IMG/VR virus record: IMGVR_UViG_3300005764_003243
Coordinates: 1 to 33,360 of that record
Strand: one strand, 5' to 3'
Origin: a virus
Taxonomy: Duplodnaviria > Caudoviricetes
DNA length: 33,360 bases
Shown here: in pieces, positions 597 to 21,067 of the stretch
How positions within the stretch are numbered: position 1 is the stretch's first letter
Layout: every line of letters begins with the position of its first letter
Position numbers and translations under genes: made by a program
The notes under the pieces: generated by a model
Seen by the model: only the letters and a program-made list of their open reading frames with translations
What the model was told of the DNA's origin: nothing
Database searches by the model: none

Positions 597-609
597 AATC
601 AACCACTTA
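597..609 (+). promoter_or_regulatory. IHF-binding consensus in attP
   Basis: AATCAACCACTTA exactly fits WATCAANNNNTTR and lies between the core and the right arm site. Confidence 0.65.
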
Positions 610-1843
610 CGGCACCCCTCGATTTATGCGCCCCTCGAGCTGTGACTAGTCCGTGACCATTACGCCGAGAATGCCGCGGCGTCGAGGGGGCGTCGTCGAG
701 CACGCCGACCCCGTGTTGATAACTCGCCTCGAGCCCCGACCCGTACAAGTCAATCGTTATCTGAATCGAGGCATGGCCCATTTGCGCTTGGATGTACTGA
801 GGCGGGGCGCCCTCGCTTGTCAGAATCGACCCGTAGGTATGCCGCAAGTCGTGGGGCTTTAGGTCGCGACCTAGCCCCGACTCGCGAGCGATACGGCGGA
901 GTAACCGGCGCACGTTTCGGGCGTCGAGCATCGACCATGCTTCCGACGGGAATAGCAGCGCCGAGCGCGGCTTGCCGTCGAGCCCGACGACGCGCTTAAG
1001 GGCGGCAATGTGCAGCTCGAGGATAGCGGCGAGCTGCGGCGATACGTCGACCCGGCGGGCGCCGTGCTTTGGCGTTTCCATGCGCCCGTGCTTATCGTTC
1101 CATGCCCGGGCGACGAGTAGCTTACCCGCCTCGGGCTCGTAGTCGTCGAGCTGCAAGGCAACCGCCTCGCCGATACGTACGCCGGTGCGGGCGAGGGTTA
1201 GCAGCAACGGGTACGCCGTCGCGAGCTGCACCCGTACCCATTCGAGGAGTACCCGGAGCTTTTCCTTAGCGAGCACCCGCGCCTCGACCGCCGCCTTTCG
1301 ATGCTGTTTGGTCGGGTGCAAGTGGAGCTTGCGGCCGAGCCGGGCGGCGGGGTTACCCGAGATAATCTCCTCGTCGACCGCCTCGTTTAAGAGCGCCCGG
1401 AGCGCCGAGTAGATCGCATATACCGACCCCTTAGCGAGCGGCTTTTGCACCCGGGTACCGTCGGCTTTGACGTACCCGACCCCTTGCCGCCGGCAGTCTT
1501 TTAGAAACGCCTTGACGGTTTGCCGGGTCAGCTCGGCGACGAGCATATCGCCGAGGCGCGGCGCGATATACAGCTCGACGGCTTGGCGGTACCCCTCGAG
1601 GGTGCGCGCCTTAATCCCGCCCTCGAGCCCGTCGAGCCATTCGAGGGCGAGCGCCCGCACCGTCTTAGAACGGTCGACGAGGGCGGAAAGCCCCTTTTGC
1701 CGGCGCTCGAGGTCGCGTTGCTTGTCTAGGGCGGCGTCGCGCTCGGCGGCGGTTTTGAACGAAAGCCGGCGGCGCTTTAGCTTGCCGTCGACGTGCACGT
1801 AGTAGTCGGCGACGAATCGCCCGCGCCTTTTCGCCCCCGTCAT
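599..1843 (-). CDS. int: Tyrosine recombinase (phage integrase)
   Basis: RTGVRIGEAVAL, PHDLRHT and MGHASIQITIDLY give the R..HxxR..H..Y catalytic set; N-terminal arm-binding and core-binding regions. Confidence 0.95.
   Translation of the reverse strand: MTGAKRRGRFVADYYVHVDGKLKRRRLSFKTAAERDAALDKQRDLERRQKGLSALVDRSKTVRALALEWLDGLEGGIKARTLEGYRQAVELYIAPRLGDMLVAELTRQTVKAFLKDCRRQGVGYVKADGTRVQKPLAKGSVYAIYSALRALLNEAVDEEIISGNPAARLGRKLHLHPTKQHRKAAVEARVLAKEKLRVLLEWVRVQLATAYPLLLTLARTGVRIGEAVALQLDDYEPEAGKLLVARAWNDKHGRMETPKHGARRVDVSPQLAAILELHIAALKRVVGLDGKPRSALLFPSEAWSMLDARNVRRLLRRIARESGLGRDLKPHDLRHTYGSILTSEGAPPQYIQAQMGHASIQITIDLYGSGLEASYQHGVGVLDDAPSTPRHSRRNGHGLVTARGAHKSRGAVSG
641..662 (+). repeat. Integrase arm-type site candidate, right copy TGTGACTAGTCCGTGACCATTA
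   Basis: Direct repeat of 422..443, lying inside the integrase 3' end. Confidence 0.7.
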
Positions 1844-5642: not shown

Positions 5643-5675
5643 CAGCTACGTGCCCGGCAACGTATGGGCGGCCCC

Positions 5676-6095
5676 ATGCCACAAGGGACGCCCGCGAAAG
5701 AGACATTAGCGGCGATTCAGAAGCTAGCTGGCTTTGCAGCGCTCCGCGACGCCGTTAAGGCGCACCAAACGAAACACAAGGGGCACGCCGGGCAAGCGCA
5801 CCGTTACCCGCCCGAGGTACGAATCAAGGCCGTTGCGCTCGCAAGCCGCGCCCTCGCCAAAGGGATTGGCGTAACCCCGACGCTCGAGGCGGCGGGGCTC
5901 GCAAGCTCGGCCCTTTACTGGCCCGAGGTGCGCGCTATCACCCCGAAGCGCAAGCGGCGCGTCGCGATGCGCCCCGTCGAGGTCGGGCGCCGCGCCTCGG
6001 CAAACGGTGCCTTGGTTGTTACTACGCCTGAGGGCTATCAAATCGAGGGGCCGGCGGCGCTCGTCGCCGAGCTACTAAAAACGCTTCGGGGGTAA
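5676..6095 (+). CDS. IS66 TnpA-like HTH accessory protein
   Basis: RYPPEVRIKAVALA...RPVEV...LVVTTPEGYQIEG..LVAELLKTL; TTGACA-N18-TATGGG-N7-ATG upstream. Confidence 0.7.
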   Translation: MPQGTPAKETLAAIQKLAGFAALRDAVKAHQTKHKGHAGQAHRYPPEVRIKAVALASRALAKGIGVTPTLEAAGLASSALYWPEVRAITPKRKRRVAMRPVEVGRRASANGALVVTTPEGYQIEGPAALVAELLKTLRG

Positions 6096-6098
6096 TAC

Positions 6099-6455
6099 AT
6101 GCTACCACTCGCGACCTCGTTTCGGGTTTGGGCATACGCCGCGCCGGTCGACTTACGCCAAAGCGTCGACGACTTGGCGGCGCTCGCCCGCAAGCGCTTG
6201 CACGCAACCGACGTCGGCGCCTGCTTTCTTTTCGTCAACGCGCTCCGCAACCGCGCTCGCGTGCTGCACTACGACGGCACCGGATGGGGATTGTACGCCA
6301 AGCGACTCGACGAGGGCCGCCGCTTCCCGGCGCTATGGGACGACGACGCCGACCCCGAGAAACCGGGCGCCGCGCTTAAGCTCTCATGGGCGGAGCTGCA
6401 ATCCTTTATCCGCCTAACCCCGGCGCATAAGGTCGCCGCCCGCCGGGCCGCCTAG
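6099..6455 (+). CDS. tnpB: IS66 TnpB (Orf2)-like accessory protein
   Basis: RVWAYAAPVDLRQSVDDL...FLFVNALRNRARVLHYDGTGWGLYAKRLDEGRRF; IS66 type, not the IS200/605 RNA-guided TnpB. Confidence 0.85.
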   Translation: MLPLATSFRVWAYAAPVDLRQSVDDLAALARKRLHATDVGACFLFVNALRNRARVLHYDGTGWGLYAKRLDEGRRFPALWDDDADPEKPGAALKLSWAELQSFIRLTPAHKVAARRAA

Positions 6456-6857: not shown

Positions 6858-7064
6858 CTAGTCGCCGACGTAGCGCGCCCGCTCTAGCCGGCGGTTGAGT
6901 ATCTTGACGACGCCGATAGCGACGTCGAGCAAATTTTCGTCGGGTACTTGCCCGCGGGCGGCCCGCATGGCGTCGAGCACGGCGCGTGCCCCGTCTAGCT
7001 GCGCCTCGAGGCGTTCCGCCTCTTGCCGTTTCTCCTCGTACCATTCGCCCGGGTCGCGAGCCAT
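6858..7064 (-). CDS. Hypothetical coiled-coil protein
   Basis: TAATG-coupled to the terminase ATPase gene. Confidence 0.55.
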   Translation of the reverse strand: MARDPGEWYEEKRQEAERLEAQLDGARAVLDAMRAARGQVPDENLLDVAIGVVKILNRRLERARYVGD

Positions 7065-7762
7065 TAGCCTAGTTGGTCATGGGCGAGGTCGCGAAAGAAT
7101 CCCGGGCCGGCGGAGCTAACCGCCGTGATCCGCCCGCCGCCCTCGATAGTCGGGCGGAGCGCTACCCAAGTCTCGTAAGCGTGCTCCCAAAATGACACCT
7201 CGTCGGCAAGCACCGACGTAAACGTATGTTGCCGCGCTTGCTCCTCGCCCTCGCCGAGTGCGACGATTTCCGAGCCATTCGGAAAGCGCAGCAAGCCGAT
7301 GCTGTACTCGCATTCGACGGCGGGTAACGACGCCGGCGTATGCCGGTGGATAAAATGCGCCCGGCGTACCAGCTCGCACGAGCCCTCGGTTTCGGTTCTT
7401 CCCAATTTGCGCGCCATGAACGCGCATTTGCTGAGCGGCGTGAACCGGGCAAGCCAATAGTTCACCGCGACAAATAGCCACGTAACGACCATGCGCCGCG
7501 ACTTCGCGACGACGACGATCGGGTGCGACTGCCACCGGCGCACGAGTAGCTCGGCATACTCATGCGGCGGGTAGCGCCTGACTTGCCCCGTTGCCTCGTC
7601 GCGCGTCCATACGCAGTCGCGCACAAACGCCCACGGGTCGCCATGCGCCCCGTAGTCGGCCGTCGCCTTGCGCTGCTCAAGGGCGAGGCGCGCCGCGGCC
7701 CGCACGGCTAGAGGATGGTCGGGGCCGAGCACGCGCCCGGCGGCGGGCGGCGTTTCAGGCAT
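7064..7762 (-). CDS. terL: Terminase large subunit, N-terminal ATPase domain as a stand-alone gene
   Basis: VVVAKSRRMVVTW (terminase Walker A variant), LRFPNGSEIVAL, SVLADEVSFW (Walker B), ITAVSSA (motif C); ends at ...FFRDLAHDQLG with no nuclease domain. Confidence 0.85.
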   Translation of the reverse strand: MPETPPAAGRVLGPDHPLAVRAAARLALEQRKATADYGAHGDPWAFVRDCVWTRDEATGQVRRYPPHEYAELLVRRWQSHPIVVVAKSRRMVVTWLFVAVNYWLARFTPLSKCAFMARKLGRTETEGSCELVRRAHFIHRHTPASLPAVECEYSIGLLRFPNGSEIVALGEGEEQARQHTFTSVLADEVSFWEHAYETWVALRPTIEGGGRITAVSSAGPGFFRDLAHDQLG

Positions 7763-8597
7763 GCGCGGCGGCAAGCTCTTTAATGGCGTTCACGAGGGCA
7801 ACCAAAATCGGGTGCATATCGAAAACTAAGACCTCGGTTTCCTCGTCGTCGGCGGGGTCGAGCTTCATGCGCCCGAGCGACACGCATTCGGGAAAGATGG
7901 CGCGCACCTTCTCGGCGTCGAAACCGTAACAGAGGGGGCCGTCGGGGTCGCTCTTTAGGTGATAGGAGATTGGTTCAAGCCCGAGAATTTCGGCGAGCCC
8001 CGCGGCGTATGGTCCGACGTCTTGCTTCAGCCGGGGGTCGGATGGATTCGCCCATGTGGTGCCGCTCGCCTTGGTCGCCGTCGCCCCGGCGATGGTGAGA
8101 TTGCCGCTGGCATCGAGCGTAAAGAGGTTCGTCGCCGGTGCGACGCCAGCGGTGCCGTGCAGCACGATCATCGTGTCGGAGCCCGAGTGCAGTTCAAGTG
8201 CCCACGTTGCTTTTGTAGCGTCATCCACTACGCCGTTAGTCGAGACATTTGCGCGCAGTGCAAGCCCGGGATTACCAGAACCAAAGACCCCAAAATGCGC
8301 CTTGGTGCCGACGGATGCTTGGTTGAGCGCGACGCCATCGCCCACCGACGTGAGCACGGCAACCGTCTTCGTTGTATCGGTGGGCACGAGCGTTGTCCCC
8401 GAAACACTCCAAGGGAGGGCGGAGGGTTTGATGGTCGGATTCGGGTACGTCCCTTGTAAATCACCGCCCGCCGCCGCGCCGGTCGAGAGCACGCCTGAGG
8501 TCGTCCACGTCGTACCGTCGTACGTGTACACGACGCCATTAGGCGCGGAATACTGCTGCCCGTTCGTCGGCGAATTCGGGAAGTCCAGCGCAGCCAT
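7755..8597 (-). CDS. Fibre/spike protein with C-terminal intramolecular chaperone (peptidase S74)
   Basis: SDPRLKQDV...GFDAEKV...FPECV...LVNAIKEL; GGDLQGTYPNP motif. Confidence 0.85.
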   Translation of the reverse strand: MAALDFPNSPTNGQQYSAPNGVVYTYDGTTWTTSGVLSTGAAAGGDLQGTYPNPTIKPSALPWSVSGTTLVPTDTTKTVAVLTSVGDGVALNQASVGTKAHFGVFGSGNPGLALRANVSTNGVVDDATKATWALELHSGSDTMIVLHGTAGVAPATNLFTLDASGNLTIAGATATKASGTTWANPSDPRLKQDVGPYAAGLAEILGLEPISYHLKSDPDGPLCYGFDAEKVRAIFPECVSLGRMKLDPADDEETEVLVFDMHPILVALVNAIKELAAAHA

Positions 8598-8600
8598 TCG

Positions 8601-8873
8601 TTACCCCATGTTGATCGGCACCCATTGGGTCGAGGTGCCGTCGTTGTAGTAAATAAAGAGCTTCCCGCTATCGCTCCGCCACCACAATTGCCCGACGACG
8701 GGCGACGCCGGCGCCGTAACACCAATCGACGCGAGTCCAGGTCTGACCCATGCCGAGCCATTGGATACGTACAACGCTTGCTCAGCCGTATTAAAATACG
8801 TGTCGCCTGAGAGTCCGACGGCGGGCGCGCTCGCGTAGGGTGCGGCGTTCGTCGTGCCGTACGCGCGTGGCAT
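8601..8873 (-). CDS. Small virion fibre/adapter protein made of two short beta modules
   Basis: GDTYFNTAEQALYVSNGSAWV and GQLWWRSDSGKLFIYYNDGTSTQWV. Confidence 0.7.
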   Translation of the reverse strand: MPRAYGTTNAAPYASAPAVGLSGDTYFNTAEQALYVSNGSAWVRPGLASIGVTAPASPVVGQLWWRSDSGKLFIYYNDGTSTQWVPINMG

Positions 8874-8875
8874 TG

Positions 8876-10105
8876 TTAGCCGACGACGACGACGCGGTAC
8901 CCGGCGCCGAGGTTTGGATTGTAGCGCACGGTTACGCTGTTGACGCTCGTCGCGTCCCAATCGACCTCGACCGCCGTATAGGGCGAGGCGCCATTCAAGA
9001 CGGTTACCTCGACGTCGCGCGTGTTCAAATTGTGGGTTACGACCTCGGGCGACGCCGTGCCCGTGAGCGCGCCGGCGTATTTCTTCGCCATGCCGGTAAT
9101 GGCAGTCGTGACGTAGCTTTGCGTCGCAATGACGGTCGTATCGACCGCCACCGTATCGGCCGCAACGGTAATGCCGGTGCCCGCGCCGACGTCGAATGTG
9201 TTACCCGTGAGCGTGAGCCCGGCGCCGCCGACGTATGCCGTAGGGCCGCCAAACTGTACCCAGGTAAGCGCCGTCGTGCCGACGGTAATCGGCGCGTCGG
9301 TTGTCATGACCCAAGCCGTGTCTTTGTTAACGGTACCTTCCGACACAAACACGGCGGCGTTTAAGAGGTCGCCCGCCGCGGCGGCGTCGGTGGCTCGAGC
9401 CCATGCGCCCGACGCTGCTATCCATATCCCATTTTCCGCCGGCGCGGTTTGGTTCTTGAGTAATACGCGGTCGTTCGCGATTGGCGTTACGCCGTCGATA
9501 GCGACGAGCCCGGTAAGTGCGACGTTCGCAGTCGACGCCACGCGCGCGGTATCTTTCCACGAGAGCCCGCTAATGGCGCCGTCAACGTACGCTTTCGTCG
9601 TCGCGTCGGTGCCCGCCGTCGGCGTCCCGAGGCTCGTGATCTTCTGCCCGTTCATGTTGAGCGCAGCAATCGGAACGGCAAGCGACGAGATGGAGATTGA
9701 GGTATGCGCGTTGCCGTCGTGCACGGGATTGCCGTGCGTGTGATCCGAGCGCGCAATCGTCGCGGCACTCCCGTTCGCCCCCGCAACGCCGAAAGTCTGC
9801 TCAGTCGTGATGGCGCCGAAAGCGGGCTCCCCATGCTTGTGGTCTTCCCGCGCGTAGTTTGTGCTCGTGCCGACAACCGGCGCGTCACCAATCGCTTGCG
9901 TCGTTACCGTCGTCGCCGGGCTTAGCGCCCCCGCCGACTTGGCGGCGACCCATTGCGTTCCGTCGTACCAATAGAGCGTGTTATCGGCGCTATTAAAGTA
10001 GAGGAGCCCTTTCACCGGGCTTGCGGGCGCCGAGCCGAGATTCTGTACGACTGCGTTACGCAGCTCGTTTTTAACGAGGTCGACGGCGCCGTAAATGGTC
10101 GGCAT
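8876..10105 (-). CDS. Virion fibre/head-decoration protein
   Basis: DATTKAYVD, DRVLLKNQTAPAENGIW...WARATD, C-terminal THNL domain; Thr/Ala/Gly-rich. Confidence 0.8.
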   Translation of the reverse strand: MPTIYGAVDLVKNELRNAVVQNLGSAPASPVKGLLYFNSADNTLYWYDGTQWVAAKSAGALSPATTVTTQAIGDAPVVGTSTNYAREDHKHGEPAFGAITTEQTFGVAGANGSAATIARSDHTHGNPVHDGNAHTSISISSLAVPIAALNMNGQKITSLGTPTAGTDATTKAYVDGAISGLSWKDTARVASTANVALTGLVAIDGVTPIANDRVLLKNQTAPAENGIWIAASGAWARATDAAAAGDLLNAAVFVSEGTVNKDTAWVMTTDAPITVGTTALTWVQFGGPTAYVGGAGLTLTGNTFDVGAGTGITVAADTVAVDTTVIATQSYVTTAITGMAKKYAGALTGTASPEVVTHNLNTRDVEVTVLNGASPYTAVEVDWDATSVNSVTVRYNPNLGAGYRVVVVG

Positions 10106-10114
10106 GCCAGCCCC

Positions 10115-11050
10115 CTAACTTAAATACGCCTCGCCCGCGACCGCCGCCGAGAACGTTAGTTGCACCGCGGTTGCGCTCGTGTAGTCGACGGCCCCGGGCC
10201 ATATCTCGCGGCCCGTCGAATCGACCGCCGCGACATTCGGGCGGAAAGAGAGATTATGCGTAATCGCCCAAGTCGTCGCCGCCGACGCTTGCACATGACG
10301 ATAGGACATTTGCGCCGCCGTACCCGTGCGGTTGAAGTCAACGAGCACGTCGGCGTTATTCGCCGGCACGCCGCCGGTGCCATTGGCGAGCACCGTCACG
10401 GGTACTTCAAACCATGTCGTATGGTCGATCAATGCAGCGCTAACCTGAAACTTGCCCCATTTGGTCGAGTCGGTTTGCTGCTGTGCTAGGATGACATCAC
10501 CGACGGCAGTCGTGAGAAATATGTTTCGGGTATCGGCGCCGGCCGTTGTTTGCGTCGAAAAGCGCAGCATGGTCGGCGCGCCTACAATGTCGGGGGCAAT
10601 GTTGCCGTTGCCCGGGTCAGTCGTGCCGCCCGTCGCCTTGTAATTCCATACGCCCGAAAGCCCGGCGCCGCCCGCGGCCCCCGGGTCGCCTTTTATGGTC
10701 GGCGTCGCCGGTACCCATTGCGTCGAGTTGCCGTCGTCGTAGTAGACAAAGAGCCGGCCGTCGGGGTCGCTCCGCCACCACATGTCGCCGACGGCGGGCG
10801 ACGCGGGCGGCGTCGGGCCGACGTGGACGCTCGCGCCGCCGCCGCCAGTCGGCGTTACCCATGCCGTCGCGTAGTCGGTCGCCGACGTTTTCTCGAGTAC
10901 CTGGCCCGACGTGCCGCCGGCGGGCACCCCTGGCCCCGCCGGCCCGGTCGGCCCGGGCGGTCCTTGTGGCCCCGGCGCGCCGCCGCCGGCGCCACCGGTG
11001 CGCCGCGGCGGGCGTATCTGCGGCGGGCGGGGGCCGGTTACCGAATCCAT
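10115..11050 (-). CDS. Fibre protein with short collagen-like repeat
   Basis: GPQGPPGPTGPAGP, GVPAGGTSGQVLEK, GDMWWRSD module, C-terminal WAITHNL domain. Confidence 0.8.
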   Translation of the reverse strand: MDSVTGPRPPQIRPPRRTGGAGGGAPGPQGPPGPTGPAGPGVPAGGTSGQVLEKTSATDYATAWVTPTGGGGASVHVGPTPPASPAVGDMWWRSDPDGRLFVYYDDGNSTQWVPATPTIKGDPGAAGGAGLSGVWNYKATGGTTDPGNGNIAPDIVGAPTMLRFSTQTTAGADTRNIFLTTAVGDVILAQQQTDSTKWGKFQVSAALIDHTTWFEVPVTVLANGTGGVPANNADVLVDFNRTGTAAQMSYRHVQASAATTWAITHNLSFRPNVAAVDSTGREIWPGAVDYTSATAVQLTFSAAVAGEAYLS

Positions 11051-11056
11051 TCCGAG

Positions 11057-11266
11057 CTAGGGGTAGATCCCGAGCCCCGCCGCGTCTAGCTCGAGCAGGA
11101 TAGCGGCCGCCCGGATCACCCGGAGCCTCGCCGGCGGGTCGAGGGGCTCGAGGATGGCGATTACCTTTCGGGCGACGGCGTGCAGCTCGGGGCGCCGCTC
11201 GAGGGCCGCCGTCGGCGCGGGCGTCGGCCCATTGTCGCCAAACGCCAAGGGCTCGTTTGCTTCCAT
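11057..11266 (-). CDS. Hypothetical protein (69 aa), leaderless
   Basis: TAGGCA-N17-TACAAG-N6-ATG; helical ...KVIAILEPLDPPARLRVIRAAAILL. Confidence 0.55.
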   Translation of the reverse strand: MEANEPLAFGDNGPTPAPTAALERRPELHAVARKVIAILEPLDPPARLRVIRAAAILLELDAAGLGIYP

Positions 11267-11298
11267 GCGGCGCTTGTAGCGCCTCACACGGCGTGTGC

Positions 11299-11952
11299 CT
11301 AGCCAGCGCTCGCTTCGATGGCGTCGCGGCGGAGGACGCACGCATCGCAACGCCCACATGAGCCAGCGCCGGTCAGCAGCGTACGCGGGCGGTAACACGA
11401 CCATGTCGCGGCGAGGTCGATAGCCATGCGCCGGGCGAGCGCCACGACATCGCGCTTAGACAGCTCGACGAGCGGTGCCACGACATGCACGGGGCGCCCG
11501 AGCGCATGGCTCGCCATGTCTTGCCACGCGAGCAGAAAGGGCGGGCGGCAATCGGGAAACCCGGCGGCGTCGTCGCCATTGGCACCAATCCAAATGGAAT
11601 CGGCGCCGTTGATTCCGGCGACCGCCAGCGCCGCGGCGAGAAAGCACACGTTCCGCCCGGGTAAAAACGCATCGCTCACGCCGCCGCTTTTCATGGCGTA
11701 AATATCCCGGTCGCTTGCCGTCGTGCCACGGGCGAGCGGTAGGAGCTTCCACGGGGCCGGGTCGAGCTGCACGCCGAAGAACGCCACGCCCGCCGCGGCG
11801 GCAATGCGCCGGGCGCACGTCAGCTCGATTATGTGGCGCTGCCCGTACGCCACGCCGACGGCAGTCGTTTGGTCGGCCCCGTCACGCCAGCACGCGAGCC
11901 CGAGCGCCACGGTTGAGTCAATGCCGCCCGAGAGCAAGACGACGTTACGCAT
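11299..11952 (-). CDS. queC: 7-cyano-7-deazaguanine synthase QueC
   Basis: VVLLSGGIDS (PP-loop), YGQRH..E, PGRN, FPDCR, PLVELSK, TWSCY...CGRCDAC Zn site. Confidence 0.92.
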   Translation of the reverse strand: MRNVVLLSGGIDSTVALGLACWRDGADQTTAVGVAYGQRHIIELTCARRIAAAAGVAFFGVQLDPAPWKLLPLARGTTASDRDIYAMKSGGVSDAFLPGRNVCFLAAALAVAGINGADSIWIGANGDDAAGFPDCRPPFLLAWQDMASHALGRPVHVVAPLVELSKRDVVALARRMAIDLAATWSCYRPRTLLTGAGSCGRCDACVLRRDAIEASAG

Positions 11953-12556
11953 AGAGCAATAAGCCCCCTTGCCGCCGCGCCGGCTCCAATTCTGCCAGGG
12001 TCGCGGCGTAGCGCGTGACGCTCGTGCCGTCGAACGACTGCGCGCCGGCGGCATGGCACCGCGCGATGCGCCGTTGCGTGTTGACGCGCCCGACGTGCAG
12101 ATAACAGCCGATCTTCGCCGCGACGCCGCCCCAATAGCCGAGCGTGTCGAGCTTCCATGCCGTCGTGCCGCCGATGAAAAGCCCGACGTTCTCGCCGAGC
12201 AGCGGCACGACGTCGGCGGGGTCGACACCATCCTGCACCGGTACCAGCACGAGGCGCGTGTACCCGCAAAGAAACGGGAGCCACGTACGGCTCCGCCGAA
12301 TCGACGCCGCCCCGGCGCCGACGATATCGGGCAGCACGACGAAATCGGCCCCGCTTCCGAGCTGCCGCACGGCGTCTAAGAAGGGGTCAGGATCCCACGC
12401 GACGCCGCGGCGGTACGCGCTCCAAGCGCCGTTATCGAGCGCGTAGCGCATGCCCTCGGTGCGTATGCACGCCGGCGTCACGAGCAAGCGCCATCCGGCG
12501 GCGCGCAAGGCGTCTAGGTTGCGCCGAGTACCCGTGCGACTGGCGTAGCCGATCAT
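11945..12556 (-). CDS. TGT-fold/DpdA-like guanine transglycosylase candidate
   Basis: YALDNGAW, VLPDIVG, VPVQDG, LFIGG, HVGRVN, SFDGTS parallel the TGT/DpdA DSGxF, D, QG, GG, H, S.D motifs; overlaps the queC start. Confidence 0.7.
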   Translation of the reverse strand: MIGYASRTGTRRNLDALRAAGWRLLVTPACIRTEGMRYALDNGAWSAYRRGVAWDPDPFLDAVRQLGSGADFVVLPDIVGAGAASIRRSRTWLPFLCGYTRLVLVPVQDGVDPADVVPLLGENVGLFIGGTTAWKLDTLGYWGGVAAKIGCYLHVGRVNTQRRIARCHAAGAQSFDGTSVTRYAATLAELEPARRQGGLLLYA

Positions 12557-12795
12557 TGCTCGAGCGCCTCCGCGTCCATGAGCGCGCCCAAGTACGCGAC
12601 CATACCGCGCAGCACCGTGCCCGCATGCGTCCCGAGCATCCTCGAGGCGCCCCACCAAGGCTCGAGCCCGCCCGAGGCGTCGGCGGTGATGATGGCAACC
12701 GCGCGCACCTCGCCCGCCTCGACGGCGCGCATTAGCCCCTCGAGCGCCGCCTTGACCCCGGCGCCATCCTCGAGCGGCACGACGCGAGCGCTCAC
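12553..12795 (-). CDS. Hypothetical protein
   Basis: GTG start; coupled by 4-nt overlaps at both ends. Confidence 0.55.
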   Translation of the reverse strand: MSARVVPLEDGAGVKAALEGLMRAVEAGEVRAVAIITADASGGLEPWWGASRMLGTHAGTVLRGMVAYLGALMDAEALEQ

Positions 12796-12989
12796 GCCTC
12801 GGGCTCCTCGAGGCGCTCGCCCCTGCATAGCGCCTCGCCCCACTTGAGCGTTGCGTGGCACGCTTGCCGCGCCGCCTCGACGTCGGCGATCCGGTCGGTA
12901 CGGGCGGCGGGTAGCCAACCAAAATCAAGCGCCCGGCGGAGCGCCGCGACGACGACGCCGAGCGTATGCAAATCGACCGGCTCGCTCAT
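12792..12989 (-). CDS. Hypothetical protein
   Basis: ATGA-coupled within the operon. Confidence 0.5.
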   Translation of the reverse strand: MSEPVDLHTLGVVVAALRRALDFGWLPAARTDRIADVEAARQACHATLKWGEALCRGERLEEPEA

Positions 12990-13165
12990 CGCTCGCCCTC
13001 GAGGTCGCGCAAGGCGCGATAGAGCGCGACCCTAAAAAGCCCGAGCGCCTCGTGCTCGAGCTGCTCGCGCCCGTCGGAATCTATCGCCCCCCGCGCCGCC
13101 GCCGTCGCCCGCCCGCGCTCGACCTCGACCCGTACGGTTACAAAGTACCGCCCCTCGAGGCTCAT
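12986..13165 (-). CDS. Hypothetical protein (59 aa)
   Basis: MSLEGRYFVTVRVEV...; ATGA-coupled. Confidence 0.5.
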   Translation of the reverse strand: MSLEGRYFVTVRVEVERGRATAAARGAIDSDGREQLEHEALGLFRVALYRALRDLEGER

Positions 13166-13371
13166 TGTAGGCACCGGTGCGCCCGCCATCGCGTATACCA
13201 CTCGTCGGCGACGTCGGGCGGGTCGCGTCGGGTATCTATGCCGAGCTGATAGACCAGGGCGCCGCAAGTGTCGCAATGCACCGTCAAGCGCAAACACTCG
13301 TCGCCTAGCTCGTCGTTCTCCTCGTAGACGACAAGCGGGCGCCGCCGCGCCGGCTCGACCGTGATACTCAT
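13162..13371 (-). CDS. Small putative Zn-binding protein
   Basis: HCDTCG...AHRC; ATGA-coupled to the TerS-like gene. Confidence 0.55.
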   Translation of the reverse strand: MSITVEPARRRPLVVYEENDELGDECLRLTVHCDTCGALVYQLGIDTRRDPPDVADEWYTRWRAHRCLQ

Positions 13372-14039
13372 TCGCCCCCGGGCAGATACCCGGCGACCCC
13401 GCGGAACCGCTCCGGCCACTCGCCGCCGGTGGCAAGGCGCTCTAGCTCGTCGTCGCTCATTTGCTCGAAAAGGTGCGCATGCATAACCGCCTTGCGCTCG
13501 ACCTTGTCGCCCGACACGGTTAGCAGCAGCTCGCCCGCCCGCAGCGCATCCGAGTCGCGCCGCGCTCGCCCCCGCCGCTCGCCCGTCGCCTTGTCTTTCA
13601 TGCCGCCCGCCAATTCGGCGACGTGCTCGATTACCGCCGGCGCCGCCGCCTTTGCCGTCGCCTGCACGCCATACTCGCCCCGCAAGATTCGGTCGACTTG
13701 CTCGGCTCGTATCAGCTCGACGATTCGCTTAACCGCCGGATGCTGCAACGCCTTGGCAGCATTCGACACGTTCGCCCATCCAATCGCCCCCGCGATCGAG
13801 CGCAAGTCGTAGCCCCCGAGGTGCAGCATCGCGACCGTCCAATGCCGCGCCGACGCCGAGCGCCGTAGCTCCTCGAGGCTTAACCCTGGTACCGACTCGA
13901 GCCAGCGCCGCGCCTCGGCCCGCTTCTCGTCGCGCGATAACCGCGCCGCCCGCCGCATGTGCGCAAGCCGCTCGACGACAACCGCCACCGATGGCCCCGG
14001 GTGCCGTTGCACTCCCGACCCCGTGCGCTCGTCGCTCAT
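13368..14039 (-). CDS. terS: Terminase small subunit-like protein
   Basis: HTH-like GYDLRSIAGAIGWANVSNAAKALQHPAVK, helical core, ALRAGELLL..SGDKVERK and MSDDELERL tail; first gene of the operon containing the TerL ATPase. Confidence 0.6.
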   Translation of the reverse strand: MSDERTGSGVQRHPGPSVAVVVERLAHMRRAARLSRDEKRAEARRWLESVPGLSLEELRRSASARHWTVAMLHLGGYDLRSIAGAIGWANVSNAAKALQHPAVKRIVELIRAEQVDRILRGEYGVQATAKAAAPAVIEHVAELAGGMKDKATGERRGRARRDSDALRAGELLLTVSGDKVERKAVMHAHLFEQMSDDELERLATGGEWPERFRGVAGYLPGGE

Positions 14040-14047
14040 GCCCGCCG

Positions 14048-14076
14048 CCGCTACCATGGCCCGCGGCCCTTGCCTA
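14048..14076 (-). promoter_or_regulatory. Candidate promoter TAGGCA-N17-TAGCGG for the leftward operon
   Basis: Same geometry recurs at 5408, 11301 and 18485. Confidence 0.45.
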
Positions 14077-14207
14077 GCCGGCGTGTTCAGACTCGAGCCG
14101 GTCGGCATGCGGCGGCGACTGAACCTCGAGGGCCGCAGCGTTTAGCTCCGGGCCGCCGCGCCTCGGCGAGCACCGGGCTCGACGGCCGCTCGCTGCCGCT
14201 CGCTGAC

Positions 14208-14370
14208 CCCCACGCTGCGCGTGGGGCTCGCGGCCTGGCTGGCTAGCTGGCTAGCGAGCCAGCCAGCCGGGATGCGGGAACCCGCGCCCCGCGCGGGCTT
14301 CCCGCCCTGCCTGGCCAAGGCAGGCCAGGGCTAGCAGGCTAGCCCTGGCTAGCTAGCAGCCTAGCCTGCT
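14208..14370. repeat. Array of closely spaced inverted repeats (at least five hairpins)
   Basis: CCCCACGC/GCGTGGGG; CTGGCTGGCT/AGCCAGCCAG; GCGGGAA-CCCGCGC/GCGCGGG-C-TTCCCGC; CCTGCCT/AGGCAGG; CCAGGGCTAGC/GCTAGCCCTGG. Confidence 0.8.
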
Positions 14371-14940
14371 CCCGGCACATCTGCCTGACAGTGCGCTATG
14401 GCACCCCGCATGGCCGGGGCGAGCGAGGCGTAAGCCGAGCGGCCATAGCCCGCGCGGCGTAACTCTTCCGCCGCGTTTGGGTAGCAAGCTAGGGCGCTAG
14501 GTACCGCCTCCCGTTGGTCGGGCTCCGGGGTCTTGCCGGGCTTGGCCAGCTCGGACCCCCCCCTAGTCCCCCCCCAATCGGGCGGTGAGACTAGGCGAGT
14601 GTGAGTCGAGGTATGGCGTAGAGGCGGGTCGTCCGCATGCGCTCGGGGCTATGGGGGGGGTGCAGAAGAGGGGAAACGCGATACCCCATAGCCGGAACCC
14701 CCCTGGTCCCGAGGCGGGGGAATACAGGCGGCCGTTACGTAGCTTCTTTCGATCCCGCGCCGCCTACCGTTGCGGTCCGAGGGACCGAACGCCCGTAGAG
14801 GGCCAACACACTCGCCAGCTCGACGGATTTCCCGACCGTCGGCACCCGTGACTCGTGCTTGTGCGCTTTGCGAGGGGGGTACGTCAATGCATAACGCGTT
14901 ATGCACCTTTGTAAGAAAGGGCATGCTGCCCCCGCCTCGA

Positions 14941-14971
14941 GGGCTAGACTCGGGCTAATGGCGTGCTAGGG
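14941..14971 (+). promoter_or_regulatory. Repeated promoter-like element, copy 1
   Basis: 25/31 identical to 22635..22665; heads the rightward operon. Confidence 0.6.
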
Positions 14972-15067
14972 GCTCGGCTCCGCCATGCGACGGGCGGGCG
15001 CTCGAGGGGGCGACGATGGATGCTCGGCCGCCCCGACACACCGAGTCAAACCCTCGAGTGGCCCGCC

Positions 15068-16222
15068 ATGCTGTTCCGATTCGGGGCGGTCCTAATGGTG
15101 GCGCTCGGGGCGGTAGCGGCGGAGGGGGCGACGCTCCGCGGCGTGCTCGGCGACGCGCAAGAGGCAGTCGGTATCCGACCGGCGCCGGCGTTTGCGCATT
15201 TTGCCGCCCATCTTACCGGGGCGGCGGGCGCCGTGGTGTCGCCTATCGAGCCGACCTCGGCGGCCGCGGTTGCCTTGGGCGCGATTGACTCGAGCATGGC
15301 GCCCTTAGGGCCGATCTTTTTGGATCATGCGCGCACCCTCGGCGCCGGCGTGTGGAATGTAAACGCCGTCGCGATGCAGTCGTTAGGCGACGGCGTGCTT
15401 GACGGGCAAGGGCTCGGCGAGCTCGGCACCGGGGCGGGGCGTACCATTCTGAAACGCACGCCGACGGGGCACGGGCCGCCGCTCGAGGCAGTCGCCTTGC
15501 GGTACGACCTCGACTTGCGCTTGCGCGCCCTTGCGGTTGCCGTGTCGCGCGGCATTACCGACGACGTCGACGTAAGCGTGCTTCTCCCGATTGTCAGCTC
15601 GGCGCTCGACTGCACGGTTAGCGCCGGCGGCCGCTCGGGTGCCGTGCATACGGGCTCGGTCGGCGTCGGTGACCTCGACGTCCGGGTTAAGTATGCGCTT
15701 CCCTTACCGAGCCCGCTCTACGGGGCCGCCACCTTAGACGCCGTCTTTCCGACCGGCGACGAGGCGCAAGCCCACGGCACCGGCGACTATTGGGGCACGA
15801 CGGCGGCGGATTTCTCGGTAGGTAACCACCGGCTCGAGGCAAACGTGCACCTCGGCGCCGCGGTAGATCTATCCGACGCCCGCCAAAGTCATGCGGTCTA
15901 CGGTCTATCGGGCTCGGCGCTCGTGTGGCCGCGCCATCTTGCCGCCGTCGTGGAGTTTTTGGGCTCGAGCGCCTTTGTACCGTCGCGCTCGGTGCCCGAT
16001 ACGCAAACGCTTGTCTTGACGCATGGAAGCGTCGCAAGCGGGCCGCTCCTCGGGGTCGATTGGGTCGATCGCCTAGACCGCTTCAATTTGAGCTTCGGTA
16101 TTCGCGTGCCTGTTGGAGCGCATGCAATGCTCTTTGCTTCCGGCTTACTTCCCTTGAATCGTGGCAGCGGGCTCCGGCCCGCCGGGGTGACGCCGGCGGT
16201 CGGCGTCGGCGGCACATGGTAG
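15068..16222 (+). CDS. Outer-membrane beta-barrel protein (COG4313/transporter-like)
   Basis: Signal peptide [21 protein letters not shown]; [16 protein letters not shown]...GTG; alternating strands; C-terminal aromatic VGVGGTW. Confidence 0.7.
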
Positions 16223-16740
16223 CGATGGCGGCGGCGCTCATGCTTGCGAGCGCGACGGCCCCTCGAGCCCTCGTGCCAACCAAGCGGGCGGCGTGTCGCA
16301 TTACGTGCGCCGGTGGCGTTGCCGGCCCGCCGGGGCCGCCCGGGCTCGACGGGCCGCCCGGGGCCGCTGGCTCGGCGGGGCCACCGGGAGCGCCGGGGCC
16401 GCTGGGGCCGCCGGGCCAGCTCGGCCCGCCGGGGCCGCCCGGGCCACCGGGGCCGGGAACGACCGTCATAACGGCGCGCACGGTCGAGCGCTCGGTACTC
16501 CGCCCCGGCGTTAATGAGCCCCTTACCGTCGAGTCGGAATGCGTGCCCGGCGAGCAAGTCATAGGCGGCGGCGTACGGGTAGCGGCAACCGACGCGGGCG
16601 ACGAGGCGCAGATGCATCTACAGGAAAGTGGCCCGACCGACGTCGGATGGCTCGGGCGTGCCGCGGCGACGAGCCGCTTTGCCCCGGGTAGCTCGCTCAC
16701 GGTTACGACGACGGTTTTTTGCCTCGAGGTGGCACCATGA
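16216..16740 (+). CDS. Secreted collagen-like protein
   Basis: Hydrophobic N-terminus, 16 consecutive Gly-X-Y triplets (many GPP), C-terminal [10 protein letters not shown]...VFC domain. Confidence 0.8.
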
Positions 16741-16877
16741 CAGTCGGCGAGCTGCTCATGTACGGCGGCGCGCTCGTCGTCATTATCGGCGGCGGCGCCT
16801 TTCTGCACGCATGGTGGAAAGCGGGCCGCACCTTGCCGCCGATTGACCGGCCGAAAAATGGCGAGTGGCCGAAATGA
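16737..16877 (+). CDS. 46-aa single-TM protein, holin candidate (not in ORF track)
   Basis: [31 protein letters not shown]...; ATGA-coupled on both sides, directly before the endolysin. Confidence 0.6.
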
Positions 16878-17458
16878 TTCAGCGCAAATATTTTTTCGAT
16901 AGCGTACGCGCGTCGCTCTTTAGCGGGCACATGACGCAAAGCCAGGTCGACGGTATGTCGGCAATGCTCGACTTCGCCGAGTCGGTCGGGTGCGATGATA
17001 GGCACCTCGCCTATATTCTCGGGACTACGTTTCACGAGACGGCGCAAACCATGCAACCGATAAGCGAATACGGGAAAGGCAAAGGCATGCCGTACGGCGT
17101 GCCCGACCCCGAGACGGGGCAAACGTATTACGGGCGCGGCTTTGTGCAGCTCACTTGGCGCGACAATTACGAGGCGCAAGATAAGAAGCTCGGGCTCGGG
17201 GGCGCGCTCGTCGCCGACGCCGATCTGGCGCTCGACCTCGGCATAGCGCTCAAGGTGATTTTCGGCGGCATGTACGACGGTGACTTTACCGGCGTCGGCT
17301 TGCCGAAATATATTACGTGCGTCGATACCGAAACCGATACGACCGATTACTACAACGCCCGCAAAATTGTGAATGGGCTCGATTGCGCGAGCATGATTCA
17401 GGGATACGCGCAGCTCTTTACGAACGCGATAACGCACGCCGCGACGACGGCGGCTTGA
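16874..17458 (+). CDS. Endolysin, GH19 (chitinase/lysozyme-like)
   Basis: [12 protein letters not shown]...[30 protein letters not shown]. Confidence 0.88.
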
Positions 17459-17473
17459 ACGGAGGGTTTCCGA

Positions 17474-17605
17474 ATGGCCCGCACCCCCGAGGAAGAGGAA
17501 ACCGAGCACCTCCCGCCCGACGACGAGGAGCACGACGAGGAGAAGAGCGCCGAGGAGCCCCCGCCGCCCGTGGGGCCGCCGGCCCCCGAGGAGCCGAAGC
17601 CATAG
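17474..17605 (+). CDS. 43-aa acidic Glu/Pro-rich peptide (not in ORF track)
   Basis: RBS GGAGGG; MARTPEEEETEHLPPDDEEHDEEK...; its TAG is directly followed in frame by the GTG of the next gene. Confidence 0.55.
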   Translation: MARTPEEEETEHLPPDDEEHDEEKSAEEPPPPVGPPAPEEPKP

Positions 17606-18487
17606 GTGGCGTTTCTCTCGAGTAGCTCGCTCGCCGAGCGCCCCGACCCGCGCACCAAGGCCGGGCAACCGTTGCCGGGCGTCACAGAATGGGATTGCCC
17701 GCGCAACGGCGTGCACGTCGTCGAGGTGCACTATACCGCCGACCCGGCGAAGCGCGACCCGCAATGGAAGCGCGAGGCGCAACGCGGCATGCCGCCGCGG
17801 GGATGGGCGCGCGAATTCGAGATTACGTGGGATCTGGGCGGCGGCGATCCCATGTTGCCCGAGTACGTGCCCGCCCTCATGCGCCGCGAGATTCGCACCA
17901 ATCAGTCGGGGCGGATTTTGCGAGGATGGGATTTCGGGCAAGTCTGCCCCGTCACCATCTTCGCGCAAGTCGACGCCTGGGGCCGGCTCCTCGTGCTCGG
18001 CGAGCTGGTGATGGAGCACGCCTCGCTGACGGCGCAGATCGAGGCGACCAAGGCGATGACGCTCGAGCTCATGGGCGCCGCGGGGCCGAGCTACGACGCC
18101 GGCGACCCCGAGGCGCTGCACGAGATGGAGCTAGGCTCCATCCGGCGCGAGCTCTTGAAGGCGGGCATCGTCTTGCAGACCTTCGGCACGATGAGCGGCA
18201 CGGCGCGGAGCTATGACCAGCTCCGCCAACGCATGCTGCGGCGGGTGATGGTGCCCGGCGAGCCCGAGCCCTCGCCCGCGTTTCTCGTATCGCCTCGGTG
18301 CCCCATCCTGCATAGTGCGCTCGCCGGTGGCTTTGCGCGGCACCCGAAAACGGGCAAGCCGATGCCGACCCATCCGTACAAAGACGTCGTCGACGCGCTT
18401 AGGTACTTAAACGAAAACCTCATGGGCGCCACCTCGGATTGGATGGCGAAAATGCAGGCAATCGCCAAGGCCGACTTGGCTTGGTAG
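17606..18487 (+). CDS. terL: Terminase large subunit, C-terminal RNase H-like nuclease domain as a stand-alone gene
   Basis: VHYTADP, WAREFEITW, ILRGWDFG...IFAQ...LGE, GDP, KDVVDALRYL; immediately upstream of the portal; no Walker motifs. Confidence 0.85.
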   Translation: MAFLSSSSLAERPDPRTKAGQPLPGVTEWDCPRNGVHVVEVHYTADPAKRDPQWKREAQRGMPPRGWAREFEITWDLGGGDPMLPEYVPALMRREIRTNQSGRILRGWDFGQVCPVTIFAQVDAWGRLLVLGELVMEHASLTAQIEATKAMTLELMGAAGPSYDAGDPEALHEMELGSIRRELLKAGIVLQTFGTMSGTARSYDQLRQRMLRRVMVPGEPEPSPAFLVSPRCPILHSALAGGFARHPKTGKPMPTHPYKDVVDALRYLNENLMGATSDWMAKMQAIAKADLAW

Positions 18488-18523: not shown

Positions 18524-21067
18524 ATGGCGCGTAAGGCTCGGGCCGCCGCGGATAAAGCCGACGTCACGCCGCTCTCGCCCGCTCGAGGCGCGCCGGCGGA
18601 AAACTTAGCCCTCGACCCCGAGATAGCTGCTCGGGTCAAGGATGAGCTGTGCCCGCTTATCCGCTCGACCCGCAATGAGCGGCAAGTGTTACGCGACCGG
18701 TGGCTACGCTATTACCGGATTTGGGGCTTGCGGCACGATATCCAAGGTTACAAGGGTCGCACAAATACGTATTTTCCAATCGGGCGCCGGTGGATAGAGC
18801 AATGGGTAACCCGGATTAAGCGCGATCTATTCCCCGATAATGATTGGTTTGCGTGCCGCGCCTTGCGCGAAGAGTTTGAGGCACGGGTGCCCGCTAAGGT
18901 CGCGCTCCAAAAGTATTGGATGCGCCGCTATATGCGGCTTAGGCGCCATGCGTTGCCGTTCCTAAGACAGCTCGTGATGTACGGTACCTCGCCAGTGCGC
19001 AACGTTTGGCGTTGCCTCGAGCACGAGCAACCGGCGCTGCAAGACGTGCTCGACGACTTGGGCGAGCCCTCGGGTAAGACGGTCGAGCGCATAGAGAAAG
19101 TCGCCGATTTCCTCGGCCCGACATTCGAGCCGGTCGACCTCTTCGCGTTCTATGTCTGGCCCGTAACCGCCGACGGGCTCGAGTCGGCAACGCTCGTTTT
19201 CGAGGATCGGTGCGTTGCTCGCGCGCACGTCGAGGCGCTCGCCGCAAAGCCGCTCGACCCGGATAACCCGAAAGCCGGCAACGTCTACGAGTTTGTGCCC
19301 GAGCTGCTCGAGCTATACGCCTCGGCGATTTCGTCGCGTGGCTCCTCGAGTAGCGGCGCCAAATTCGACGCGCTCGCCTTGCGCCTCGCCGACAAGGGCT
19401 TTACCGCCCCGCTCGACCAAAACCTACCGACGGCGCTCCGCCCGCTCGACTTGACCGAGTGTAGTTGGATGGTCGACCTCGAGGGCGACGGCGTGCAACG
19501 CTATCTCGTAACCCTCGGCGCCGATACCATACCGCTCCGGGTGCAGCGCCGCCCATTTTGGTTTTCGGGCACGCAATGGCTTGCCGGGCGCTTTGTCGAG
19601 GTGCCCGAGGAGTTTTACGGGCGCGGCTTGCCCGAGCTGTTTGATTACCTGCAATATTTCGTAAACGACCTCGGCAACCAATCGGGCGACGCATTCGTTT
19701 GGTCGACCAATCCTATAGCCGTTGTCGATATCGGCGCCGTGCAAGACCCGACGTCGCTACGCATGACGCCGGGCGCAAAGTGGCTAGCCAATCCCGCCGG
19801 CGTGCAGTTTACGACGCCGCCGCAAGGCGCCGCGCAAGCCGGCTTTGACGCGGTGACCGGCTTTCTCGGCATGGCGGATAACTTGGTGGCGCCGACGCCG
19901 GCGCGCCCCATGGTGCCCGGGCAGCAGTCGGGGCCGCAAGATTCGGCGGGCTTGGCGGCGCAGCTCGCCGATAGCGCCGTCGACCTCCGCGCGATTGTCG
20001 AAAACCTCGAGGATGAGGTTATGGTGCCGCTCCTCGAGCGCTCCGACATTCTTTCGCAGCAATGCCTAGACCGAGACATAATTCTTAAGGTCGCCGGGCA
20101 AAACGGCGTCGAGCTGCTCGAGCACCCGATTACCGTTGCCGACTTGGTCGGTGAGTATGAATGGGAATGGCTCGGCACGACGTCGGCGCTTAACCAGCAA
20201 GTACGGGCGCAACAGATGGTGCAAGGGATTGCGCTCCTCGTGCAGCTACCGCCCGACCAAATCGCCGCCGAGGGCTTGGTAGTCGATTGGCGCTATATCG
20301 TCGAGCAATATTGGAGCCTCGGGCTCGGGCTTCCGAATCCCGACCGAGTGTTTAAAAACGCCGGCCCCAAAGAGGCGCAAGATTGGCGCTACGAGAACGC
20401 GCTTGCCCGCGTCAATCGCGCCGACGAGCTACAGGTATCGCCCGCCGATGACCACTTGGCCCATGTGCAGGGGCACCAAAGCGCGCTCGAGCATGGCGTG
20501 CTTACCGACGACGCGCACGCCGCGATGACCAAGCATGTGCAAGATCATATTAGCTTTGCCGTCGCCGCCGAGGTGCAACGGTTGCAAGCGGCAATGGCGG
20601 CCGCCGCCGGCCCCCCCGGCGGCCCTCCCGGGCTCGGCCCTCCGCCGCCCGGTGGCATGCCTCCGCCGCCGGGCGCTCCGGGGCCGCTCGGGCCGCCGCC
20701 GATGGGCGGGCCGCCGCCCGGGCCGATGGGGCCGCCCCCGGGGCCGCCGGTCGGGCCGCCCATTATGCCGGTGCCCGGCGGCGGCCCGATACCGCCGGCG
20801 CCCGTGATTCCTAAGCCACCGGCGGCGATTGTGCCCCCGGCGCCGCTCGGCGGCGGCTACGTGCCCGGCGTCGCTCGCCGCGGCGTGAACGAGCTGGCCC
20901 GCCAAGTCGGCGGCCGCCCCAAACTCCCGAAACCGCATAGCGACGCCCGGGATAGGGCGAAAGCGCTAATGGGTATCCGGCAACCGTCGCCGCTCGGCCC
21001 CGGGCGTATCGGGTCGACGCGCAACATTTCCGACCTATTCCGCCGCTTGCCGCGGCTTCCGAGGTAG
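18524..21067 (+). CDS. Portal protein with long Pro/Gly-rich C-terminal extension
   Basis: Position after the terminase; LVMYGTS, EEFYGRGLPE, TPGAKW, DDHLAHVQGH motifs of podovirus-type portals. Confidence 0.85.
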   Translation: MARKARAAADKADVTPLSPARGAPAENLALDPEIAARVKDELCPLIRSTRNERQVLRDRWLRYYRIWGLRHDIQGYKGRTNTYFPIGRRWIEQWVTRIKRDLFPDNDWFACRALREEFEARVPAKVALQKYWMRRYMRLRRHALPFLRQLVMYGTSPVRNVWRCLEHEQPALQDVLDDLGEPSGKTVERIEKVADFLGPTFEPVDLFAFYVWPVTADGLESATLVFEDRCVARAHVEALAAKPLDPDNPKAGNVYEFVPELLELYASAISSRGSSSSGAKFDALALRLADKGFTAPLDQNLPTALRPLDLTECSWMVDLEGDGVQRYLVTLGADTIPLRVQRRPFWFSGTQWLAGRFVEVPEEFYGRGLPELFDYLQYFVNDLGNQSGDAFVWSTNPIAVVDIGAVQDPTSLRMTPGAKWLANPAGVQFTTPPQGAAQAGFDAVTGFLGMADNLVAPTPARPMVPGQQSGPQDSAGLAAQLADSAVDLRAIVENLEDEVMVPLLERSDILSQQCLDRDIILKVAGQNGVELLEHPITVADLVGEYEWEWLGTTSALNQQVRAQQMVQGIALLVQLPPDQIAAEGLVVDWRYIVEQYWSLGLGLPNPDRVFKNAGPKEAQDWRYENALARVNRADELQVSPADDHLAHVQGHQSALEHGVLTDDAHAAMTKHVQDHISFAVAAEVQRLQAAMAAAAGPPGGPPGLGPPPPGGMPPPPGAPGPLGPPPMGGPPPGPMGPPPGPPVGPPIMPVPGGGPIPPAPVIPKPPAAIVPPAPLGGGYVPGVARRGVNELARQVGGRPKLPKPHSDARDRAKALMGIRQPSPLGPGRIGSTRNISDLFRRLPRLPR

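Follow-up and report, generated by a model that had tools for sequence, protein, structure and literature searches.

A large terminase encoded by two genes on opposite strands of an uncultured soil phage

TerL, the large subunit of the terminase, is usually described as one chain, and the separated domains of the T4 protein cannot translocate DNA (PMC9958956). The question raised by IMG/VR record IMGVR_UViG_3300005764_003243, from an uncultured soil phage of temperate, podovirus-like type, is how such a protein can be supplied by two genes that lie kilobases apart on opposite strands. The window, by which we mean the whole stretch analysed, is 33,360 bases long and belongs to a record classed as a provirus. 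Two open reading frames (ORFs) separated by 9.8 kb, 7064-7762 on the minus strand (232 amino acids, hereafter chain A) and 17606-18487 on the plus strand (293 amino acids, chain B), had been read in a first-pass annotation as the ATPase and nuclease genes of a divided TerL, and their coordinates and sizes stand. Our analyses establish that the split is real and inherited and place the cut inside the ATPase domain. We consider it probable that the two products together rebuild a single TerL subunit.

Two complementary chains and the position of the cut

Chain A is related to T4 gp17 (phmmer E 2.9e-5), and a profile built from 70 ATPase-only relatives matches gp17 residues 93-300 with an E value of 1.7e-26. 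It contains a deviant P-loop (K87-S88-R89), Walker B (D187-E188) and motif C (S216-S217-A218), and so retains the Walker B DE and motif C expected of an ASCE (additional strand, catalytic glutamate) ATPase. Its C-terminus lies 14 residues past motif C, in agreement with the earlier remark that the ORF stops shortly after that motif. D187, E188 and S217 are invariant in all 48 distinct ATPase sequences, and the motif residues tested are invariant or nearly so. Within the P-loop (window residues 87-95), R89 corresponds to T4 R162 and an invariant K87 lies upstream, while the lysine at the T4 K166 position is absent from 65/65 split and 42/42 one-chain family members in which the motif was found. 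As one-chain members share it, this deviation is a family trait and not decay that followed the split.

For chain B, family-library searches gave no useful family match and its profile fell below significance against T4 gp17 alone; its identity comes from fold and profile coverage. The predicted model (predicted local distance difference test score, pLDDT, 87.5) matches TerL nuclease domains over residues ~80-279, superposing on the D6E nuclease with Z 20.4 (root-mean-square deviation, rmsd, 2.6 over 173 aligned residues), on P22 with Z 18.3 and on T4 361-561 with Z 14.6. D109 corresponds to T4 D401 and, together with E133, D167, D260 and D263, is invariant in 47/47 sequences, so that chain B contains an RNase H-like nuclease domain with its acidic catalytic residues. 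A one-chain profile from 43 relatives finds exactly two matches in the window record, at positions 18-222 and 218-488 of 503. This is the complementary coverage that the first-pass annotation had anticipated: the halves jointly cover a one-chain TerL, and there is no third copy in the 33,360-base record. The sole long match to the nuclease half, P0001 (594 amino acids), covers 21% of chain B, carries no ATPase match and looks frameshifted, and was set aside.

The cut itself can be placed on known structures. Aligned with hhalign, the one-chain profile corresponds to gp17 105-402 (probability 99%), which puts the end of chain A near gp17 residue 302 and W54-W75 of chain B at T4 333-357. In the model of a one-chain relative, P0064 (pLDDT 91.5), the cut falls in a loop at ~223-236 (pLDDT 78-79) that is followed by three strands and two helices. 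As a single domain, residues 17-293 of this model can be superposed on the ATPase domain of T4 (101-359; Z 25.2, rmsd 2.7, 246 aligned), which means that 26 or more of the aligned residues come from beyond the cut; they also superpose on P74-26 4-255 (Z 22.1), and the nuclease begins near 292-296. Chain B accordingly comprises the last ATPase strands, lid helices and hinge at ~20-80 and the RNase H-like nuclease at ~81-279, its segment 22-80 being as conserved (0.62) as the nuclease part (0.52). Hence the cut lies inside the ATPase domain and not at the hinge, and chain B carries the last ~57-70 residues of that domain as well as hinge and nuclease. The description of the second ORF as linker and nuclease only thus holds for the nuclease at ~80-279; the first ~80 residues are distal ATPase domain. 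We identify part of this segment as the lid (T4 subdomain II) from its position and from PMC5389665 and PMC9958956; in P74-26 the lid caps the active site and adds to ring contacts (PMC5389665). When the T4 domains are parted at the hinge their activities are retained and translocation is lost (PMC9958956), which is consistent with a cut that spares the hinge.

The same boundary recurs among relatives. The best 150 representatives for the ATPase half comprise 93 ATPase-only, 49 full-length and 8 ambiguous proteins; in 86 of the 93 the C-terminus differs from that of chain A by -2 to +7 residues, and in 42 of the 49 full-length proteins the match to chain B follows the ATPase match.

Conservation and history of the split

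IMG/VR supplied 54 loci for each TerL half, which we call the close set. All 54 ATPase genes stop at the identical position with differing codons (TAG 23, TAA 21, TGA 10), and of the 51 nuclease loci with an intact 5' end, 50 start at one position with ATG (32) or GTG (18), while one has ACG; the 30 bases past either end of the cut are unconserved. The halves occupy opposite strands in 12/12 contigs that hold both, in a single orientation only, with spacings of 4.5-8.6 kb in ten measured contigs and 9.8 kb in the window. Five long relatives have exactly two terminase matches each, and two of these have terminal repeats and are 100% complete; an intact terL elsewhere in the genome was therefore not found in them. 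Median ratios of non-synonymous to synonymous substitution (dN/dS) against the window are 0.147 for the ATPase gene (47 distinct), 0.218 for the nuclease gene (46) and 0.167 for the portal gene (39). Tree distances of the two halves correlate with r 0.95 over 36 loci, with matching nested clades, and the arrangement is kept down to ~70% identity. The split is thus real and inherited, and both halves are under purifying selection. These results bear out the first-pass annotation where it excluded misassembly and proposed a stable two-gene TerL in divergent operons, and the survey of relatives and congruence of phylogenies that it had suggested both point the same way. Each gene is also tightly packed against its neighbours, as that annotation had noted: the ATPase gene stop overlaps the next gene's start (TAATG), and the GTG of the nuclease gene comes immediately after the TAG of a 43-amino-acid acidic ORF.

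In public soil sequencing runs, three of four of which are possibly the source sample, contigs span both split junctions. None of the 15 joints shown connects the halves; 28 further joints were not shown, and contigs lose rare variants. A joint between 14230 and 17664 on opposite strands (run X2) was rejected, as it occurs in one contig, with a 42-base side at 90% likeness, and the ATPase gene has no part in it. The same run yielded a 6.9-kb contig otherwise like the window with 18 differences at 17662-17772, in the 5' part of the nuclease gene, which suggests a recombinant patch in a co-occurring strain. At one locus in a Bacillota bin (L150, 8880-10210) the split terminase looks decayed, the ATPase gene being frameshifted and the nuclease frame short.

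To place the arrangement in a wider family, we scanned with the nuclease alignment and found 523 viral loci, of which the best 80 were kept; 33 of these were new. The distant loci were located through the nuclease half only, the 70-sequence ATPase alignment being too diverse for a locus scan. The halves are adjacent or overlapping at 11 of the 33 and on the same strand 0.7-7.4 kb apart at 14; one locus encodes a single chain and seven have no ATPase in the locus. Start codons of their own are present in the adjacent forms, and several of these also show a ribosome-binding site. In the seven of the 14 spaced forms that were examined, ordinary genes lie between the halves and no Rfam intron was found; at one such locus (L126) HNH-like endonuclease ORFs, recognised by eye from their motif, lie between the halves at 7423 and 9477, again without an Rfam intron. 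Among 13 loci in genome bins, nine are split, two one-chain and two without ATPase in the locus.

Along one strand, three same-strand relatives (L115, L122 and L123) show ATPase, barrel-like gene, endolysin, nuclease and portal in that order, and carry homologues of the window's 14963-17605 genes between the TerL halves. The window has this same order with the terS-ATPase block inverted. In the trees of both halves the opposite-strand group (11 rows, support 100) lies inside a 23-row group of same-strand spaced forms (support 98-99), which implies that fission came earlier and a single inversion later. The first-pass remark that inverting the left operon would still leave genes between the halves fits, for same-strand relatives already carry genes there. 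An inversion that broke an intact gene, or one that is still toggling, was rejected, since same-strand relatives are already split and the junctions have no conserved site.

At greater depth the history is less orderly. On a quick, unrooted tree of 138 rows (8 ambiguous and 5 off-length rows excluded), split and one-chain states require 38 changes, at least 11 of them forced by well-supported branches; 38 is no fewer than for shuffled labels (mean 40). It is thus likely that fission or fusion has occurred repeatedly at one loop, its count and direction being unsure. Several short PHROG profiles named 'terminase large subunit' (10250, 5989, 5653, 19179 and 21277; 199-347 positions) hint that databases contain many terL genes with a single domain.

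One subunit from two chains

The anatomy of the two proteins leads us to favour, with good confidence, a model of fragment complementation in which one TerL subunit is rebuilt from two independently translated chains. Most of the ATPase core would come from chain A, and the N-terminus of chain B would finish the ATPase domain with three strands and the lid helices before continuing into hinge and nuclease. The cut would lie in a surface loop right after the helix that follows motif C, such that the lid-hinge-nuclease path coupling ATP hydrolysis to DNA movement would stay covalent within chain B and only a rigid intra-domain contact would turn non-covalent. Both genes are presumably expressed, and an A:B heterodimer, in a presumed 1:1 ratio, would then work with TerS and portal like an ordinary TerL. 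Historically, a one-chain ancestor may have undergone fission, followed by gene insertion between the halves and by one inversion of the terS-ATPase block.

Several points weigh against this model. Neither half alone reaches a Pfam terminase family. With no lysine at the K166 position, ATP hydrolysis is an inferred property of chain A, and binding between the chains likewise rests on inference. The record is only 87% complete, and the terS candidate described below has no family match. The Arthrobacter cluster AY phages are viable with TerL cut at the hinge, so that sparing the hinge is no general requirement. Finally, the trees are quick ones with long branches and the deep tree is unrooted, which leaves fission and fusion unpolarised.

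Other explanations must be set beside it. The chains might be largely independent modules, a ring of chain A translocating alone and chain B being recruited only for cutting, with separate timing and ratios; divergent operons with halves up to 9.8 kb apart and without translational coupling would suit this, several isolated TerL nuclease domains cleave DNA (PMC5389665), and hinge-cut AY terminases exist. We regard it as improbable nonetheless, given that the final ~57-70 residues of the ATPase domain are missing from chain A, among them the lid with its roles at the active site and in ring contacts in P74-26 (PMC5389665), and that chain B is strongly conserved in its N-terminal segment. The proposal of separately controlled cutting and translocation modules, made in the first-pass annotation, is not supported, the cut lying inside the ATPase domain: without the last strands and lid, chain A is probably unable to work without chain B. 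An assembly artefact, or decaying genes of a provirus, could be suspected from a metagenomic provirus record with a deviant P-loop. This is extremely improbable and already largely refuted by an arrangement conserved to ~70% identity, by purifying selection and the invariance of catalytic residues, by the absence of another terL from complete genomes, and by the presence of the same P-loop in one-chain relatives.

Covalent rejoining of the halves, whether through trans-splicing of RNA, through a split intein, or through inversion of the DNA at 7064-17605, which would abut the ATPase end and the nuclease start, has precedents: in mirusviruses the two parts of TerL are encoded at a distance from each other, at times on opposite strands, and undergo trans-splicing (PMC12768974), and a split-intein terminase is known (PMC2677866). 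The inversion is geometrically possible and the phage encodes a tyrosine integrase. Yet the longest word common to the junctions measures 7-12 nucleotides across 11 genomes, against shuffled means of 7.4-8.8, and the one genome above its shuffle maximum (12 nucleotides) has the word at a position not common to the others, so that these 11 genomes hold no position-conserved word that could serve as inverted recombination sites. The flanks of the cut are unconserved, Rfam matches are absent from the window (E<=1) and from 11 related loci, and neither protein has extra residues at the cut or a Pfam intein match, which upholds the earlier statement that intein and intron signatures are absent. A close fused form was not found in a weak search, no joint among the 15 shown connects the halves in the soil contigs, which span both split junctions, and the adjacent forms have separate start codons, in several cases together with a ribosome-binding site. 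We therefore hold covalent rejoining to be very unlikely, and return to fragment complementation as the preferred account.

The natural intra-ATPase cut gives these results a use beyond the phage itself, as it lets one test which covalent links the motor needs, and the lid-nuclease chain and the ATPase core can be varied or labelled separately. Furthermore, with 93 of the 150 best relatives ATPase-only and neither half reaching a Pfam terminase family, terL-based detection and trees can miss or mislabel such phages.

Genomic setting and comparison with known terminases

TerL is encoded together with portal, capsid and, by position, small terminase genes. The probable small terminase gene (13368-14039, minus strand) is the first of the leftward operon; it has no Pfam or PHROG match, and the assignment comes from position and from an atlas lead to clusters with 14-18% helix-turn-helix (HTH) members. 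In 37/37 loci with both, this candidate shares the strand of the ATPase gene and lies upstream of it, within 500 bp in 14 of them. Between the two lies a block of variable accessory genes (7755-13419, minus strand; 12 bp to 6.2 kb across relatives), assigned by domain matches and neighbourhood comparison, with a tail-fibre/S74 chaperone, a decoration-like protein, QueC and small unknowns. The tail-fibre block sits in the leftward operon of the window and ahead of the nuclease gene in some relatives. Tail-collar-like modules are duplicated at 8616-8717 and 10709-10813 (85-87% identical), as also noted for L029, L051 and L100, and at 11299-12559 (minus strand) the QueC-like gene stands beside an unknown gene (phrog_15826), possibly forming a base-modification pair.

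On the plus strand, the variable genes ahead of the nuclease gene (14963-17605), assigned in the same way, encode an unannotated protein of ~400 amino acids, a collagen-repeat protein, a GH19 endolysin and the 43-amino-acid acidic ORF (17474-17605). The portal gene (18524-21067, plus strand; SU10/podovirus type, PF23899 E 3.2e-7, slightly below cut-off) is the next gene after the nuclease gene in 52 of 54 loci, an SU10-type adaptor is also encoded, and the major capsid protein of the head module lies at 24364-25686 on the same strand (phrog_1357, E 9.1e-42). The tyrosine integrase gene (599-1843, minus strand) has a Pfam match, and a tRNA search of the window found none. Elsewhere, a two-ORF IS66-like remnant without a full transposase lies at 5664-6455 (plus strand; TnpB_IS66 E 1.8e-14), with a similar pair at the corresponding place in L043, and two tandem GNAT acetyltransferase genes stand amid tail and internal-protein genes at 30225-31411 (plus strand). 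No cultured phage is close to the ATPase half, the best matches being below 30% identical among 40 listed of 619 records, and the nuclease half matches two records, a one-chain TerL. Host clues diverge, with a 77% nuclease match in a Gaiellales bin and an 82% match named from a Steroidobacteraceae bin.

The operons diverge at a conserved non-coding element (14183-14445) in which three short boxes are invariant, two of them recurring as an inverted copy, and palindromic repeats are rich in CTAG; in the non-coding stretch 14110-14960 CTAG occurs 12 times, the overall figure being 1.9 per kb. In 16/16 distinct sequences that extend 1.2 kb or more upstream, the window among them, a single copy of an 8-base word is found in one orientation at 228-796 bases upstream of terS; L001, with less flank, has a one-base variant. 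Two more invariant boxes precede it in 23 rows selected for carrying the word, and all 26 matches of the three-box pattern in IMG/VR are on close-set contigs. The DNA strand of the element folds better than 100/100 shuffles (z -5.5), and no sigma-70 promoter or terminator was found at 13900-15200. A packaging site, an origin or a divergent promoter are possible functions. The same-strand relatives L112, L116, L123 and L128 also have CTAG-rich stretches upstream of terS or the ATPase gene, and 12 of 23 contigs ending upstream of terS do so within 800 bases of it, a count made without a control run. More speculative, and in our view rather doubtful, is a scheme in which TerL of this large uncultured family with a non-standard P-loop has repeatedly come apart and been rejoined at one intra-ATPase loop, the two chains form a self-complementing motor subunit with chain B as an assembly switch that keeps the ATPase core inactive until the lid-nuclease chain arrives, and, in the present clade, the inter-operon element drives both genes and serves as packaging site.

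One-chain T4-type TerL (T4 gp17; P74-26, D6E, P22; Terminase_6N, phrog_2) combines the same ATPase and RNase H-like folds and shares Walker B, the P-loop arginine, motif C and the nuclease Asp with the proteins described here, whose halves jointly cover the T4-type chain without overlap; it differs in being one polypeptide and in having the P-loop lysine at the K166 position. Terminase halves of herpesviruses and mirusviruses are also separated by kilobases and, in mirusviruses, occasionally occupy opposite strands (PMC13595911, PMC12768974), but are united at RNA level into one chain in eukaryotic cells, whereas here each half has its own stop or start, the flanks are unconserved and the phage is of bacterial type. 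The split-intein 'fractured' terminase (Dassa et al. 2009, PMC2677866) is likewise a phage terminase in two genes, unlike the present one, which has no intein sequence at either end. For vB_MoxS-R1 and Gordonia phage Nyceirae, with terL in two ORFs, a frameshift was proposed and left untested (PMC9030533); with halves on opposite strands it is impossible here. Passages of PMC7824862, PMC11476376, PMC12628072 and PMC10580990 contain nothing on such an arrangement, and our literature search, incomplete in coverage and excluding supplements, found neither an intra-ATPase cut nor opposite-strand halves for a phage.

The nearest parallel is found in the Arthrobacter cluster AY phages, cultured phages that include BillyTP (genes 2 and 3, PP978841) and BlueShadow and encode TerL in two consecutive genes (PMC11920828, PMC12820723). 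Those of BillyTP overlap and encode 359 and 198 amino acids, whereas here 232 and 293 amino acids are encoded in divergent operons 4.5-9.8 kb apart. The terminase types also differ, PHROG 9 in AY and PHROG 2 here. In BillyTP the cut comes ~110 residues past motif C and 15 before the first catalytic Asp, that is, at the hinge; here it comes 14 residues past motif C and 108 before D109, within the ATPase domain. A two-gene TerL is therefore already published, and it is the intra-ATPase cut and the placement of the halves on opposite strands that set the present terminase apart from that of cluster AY.

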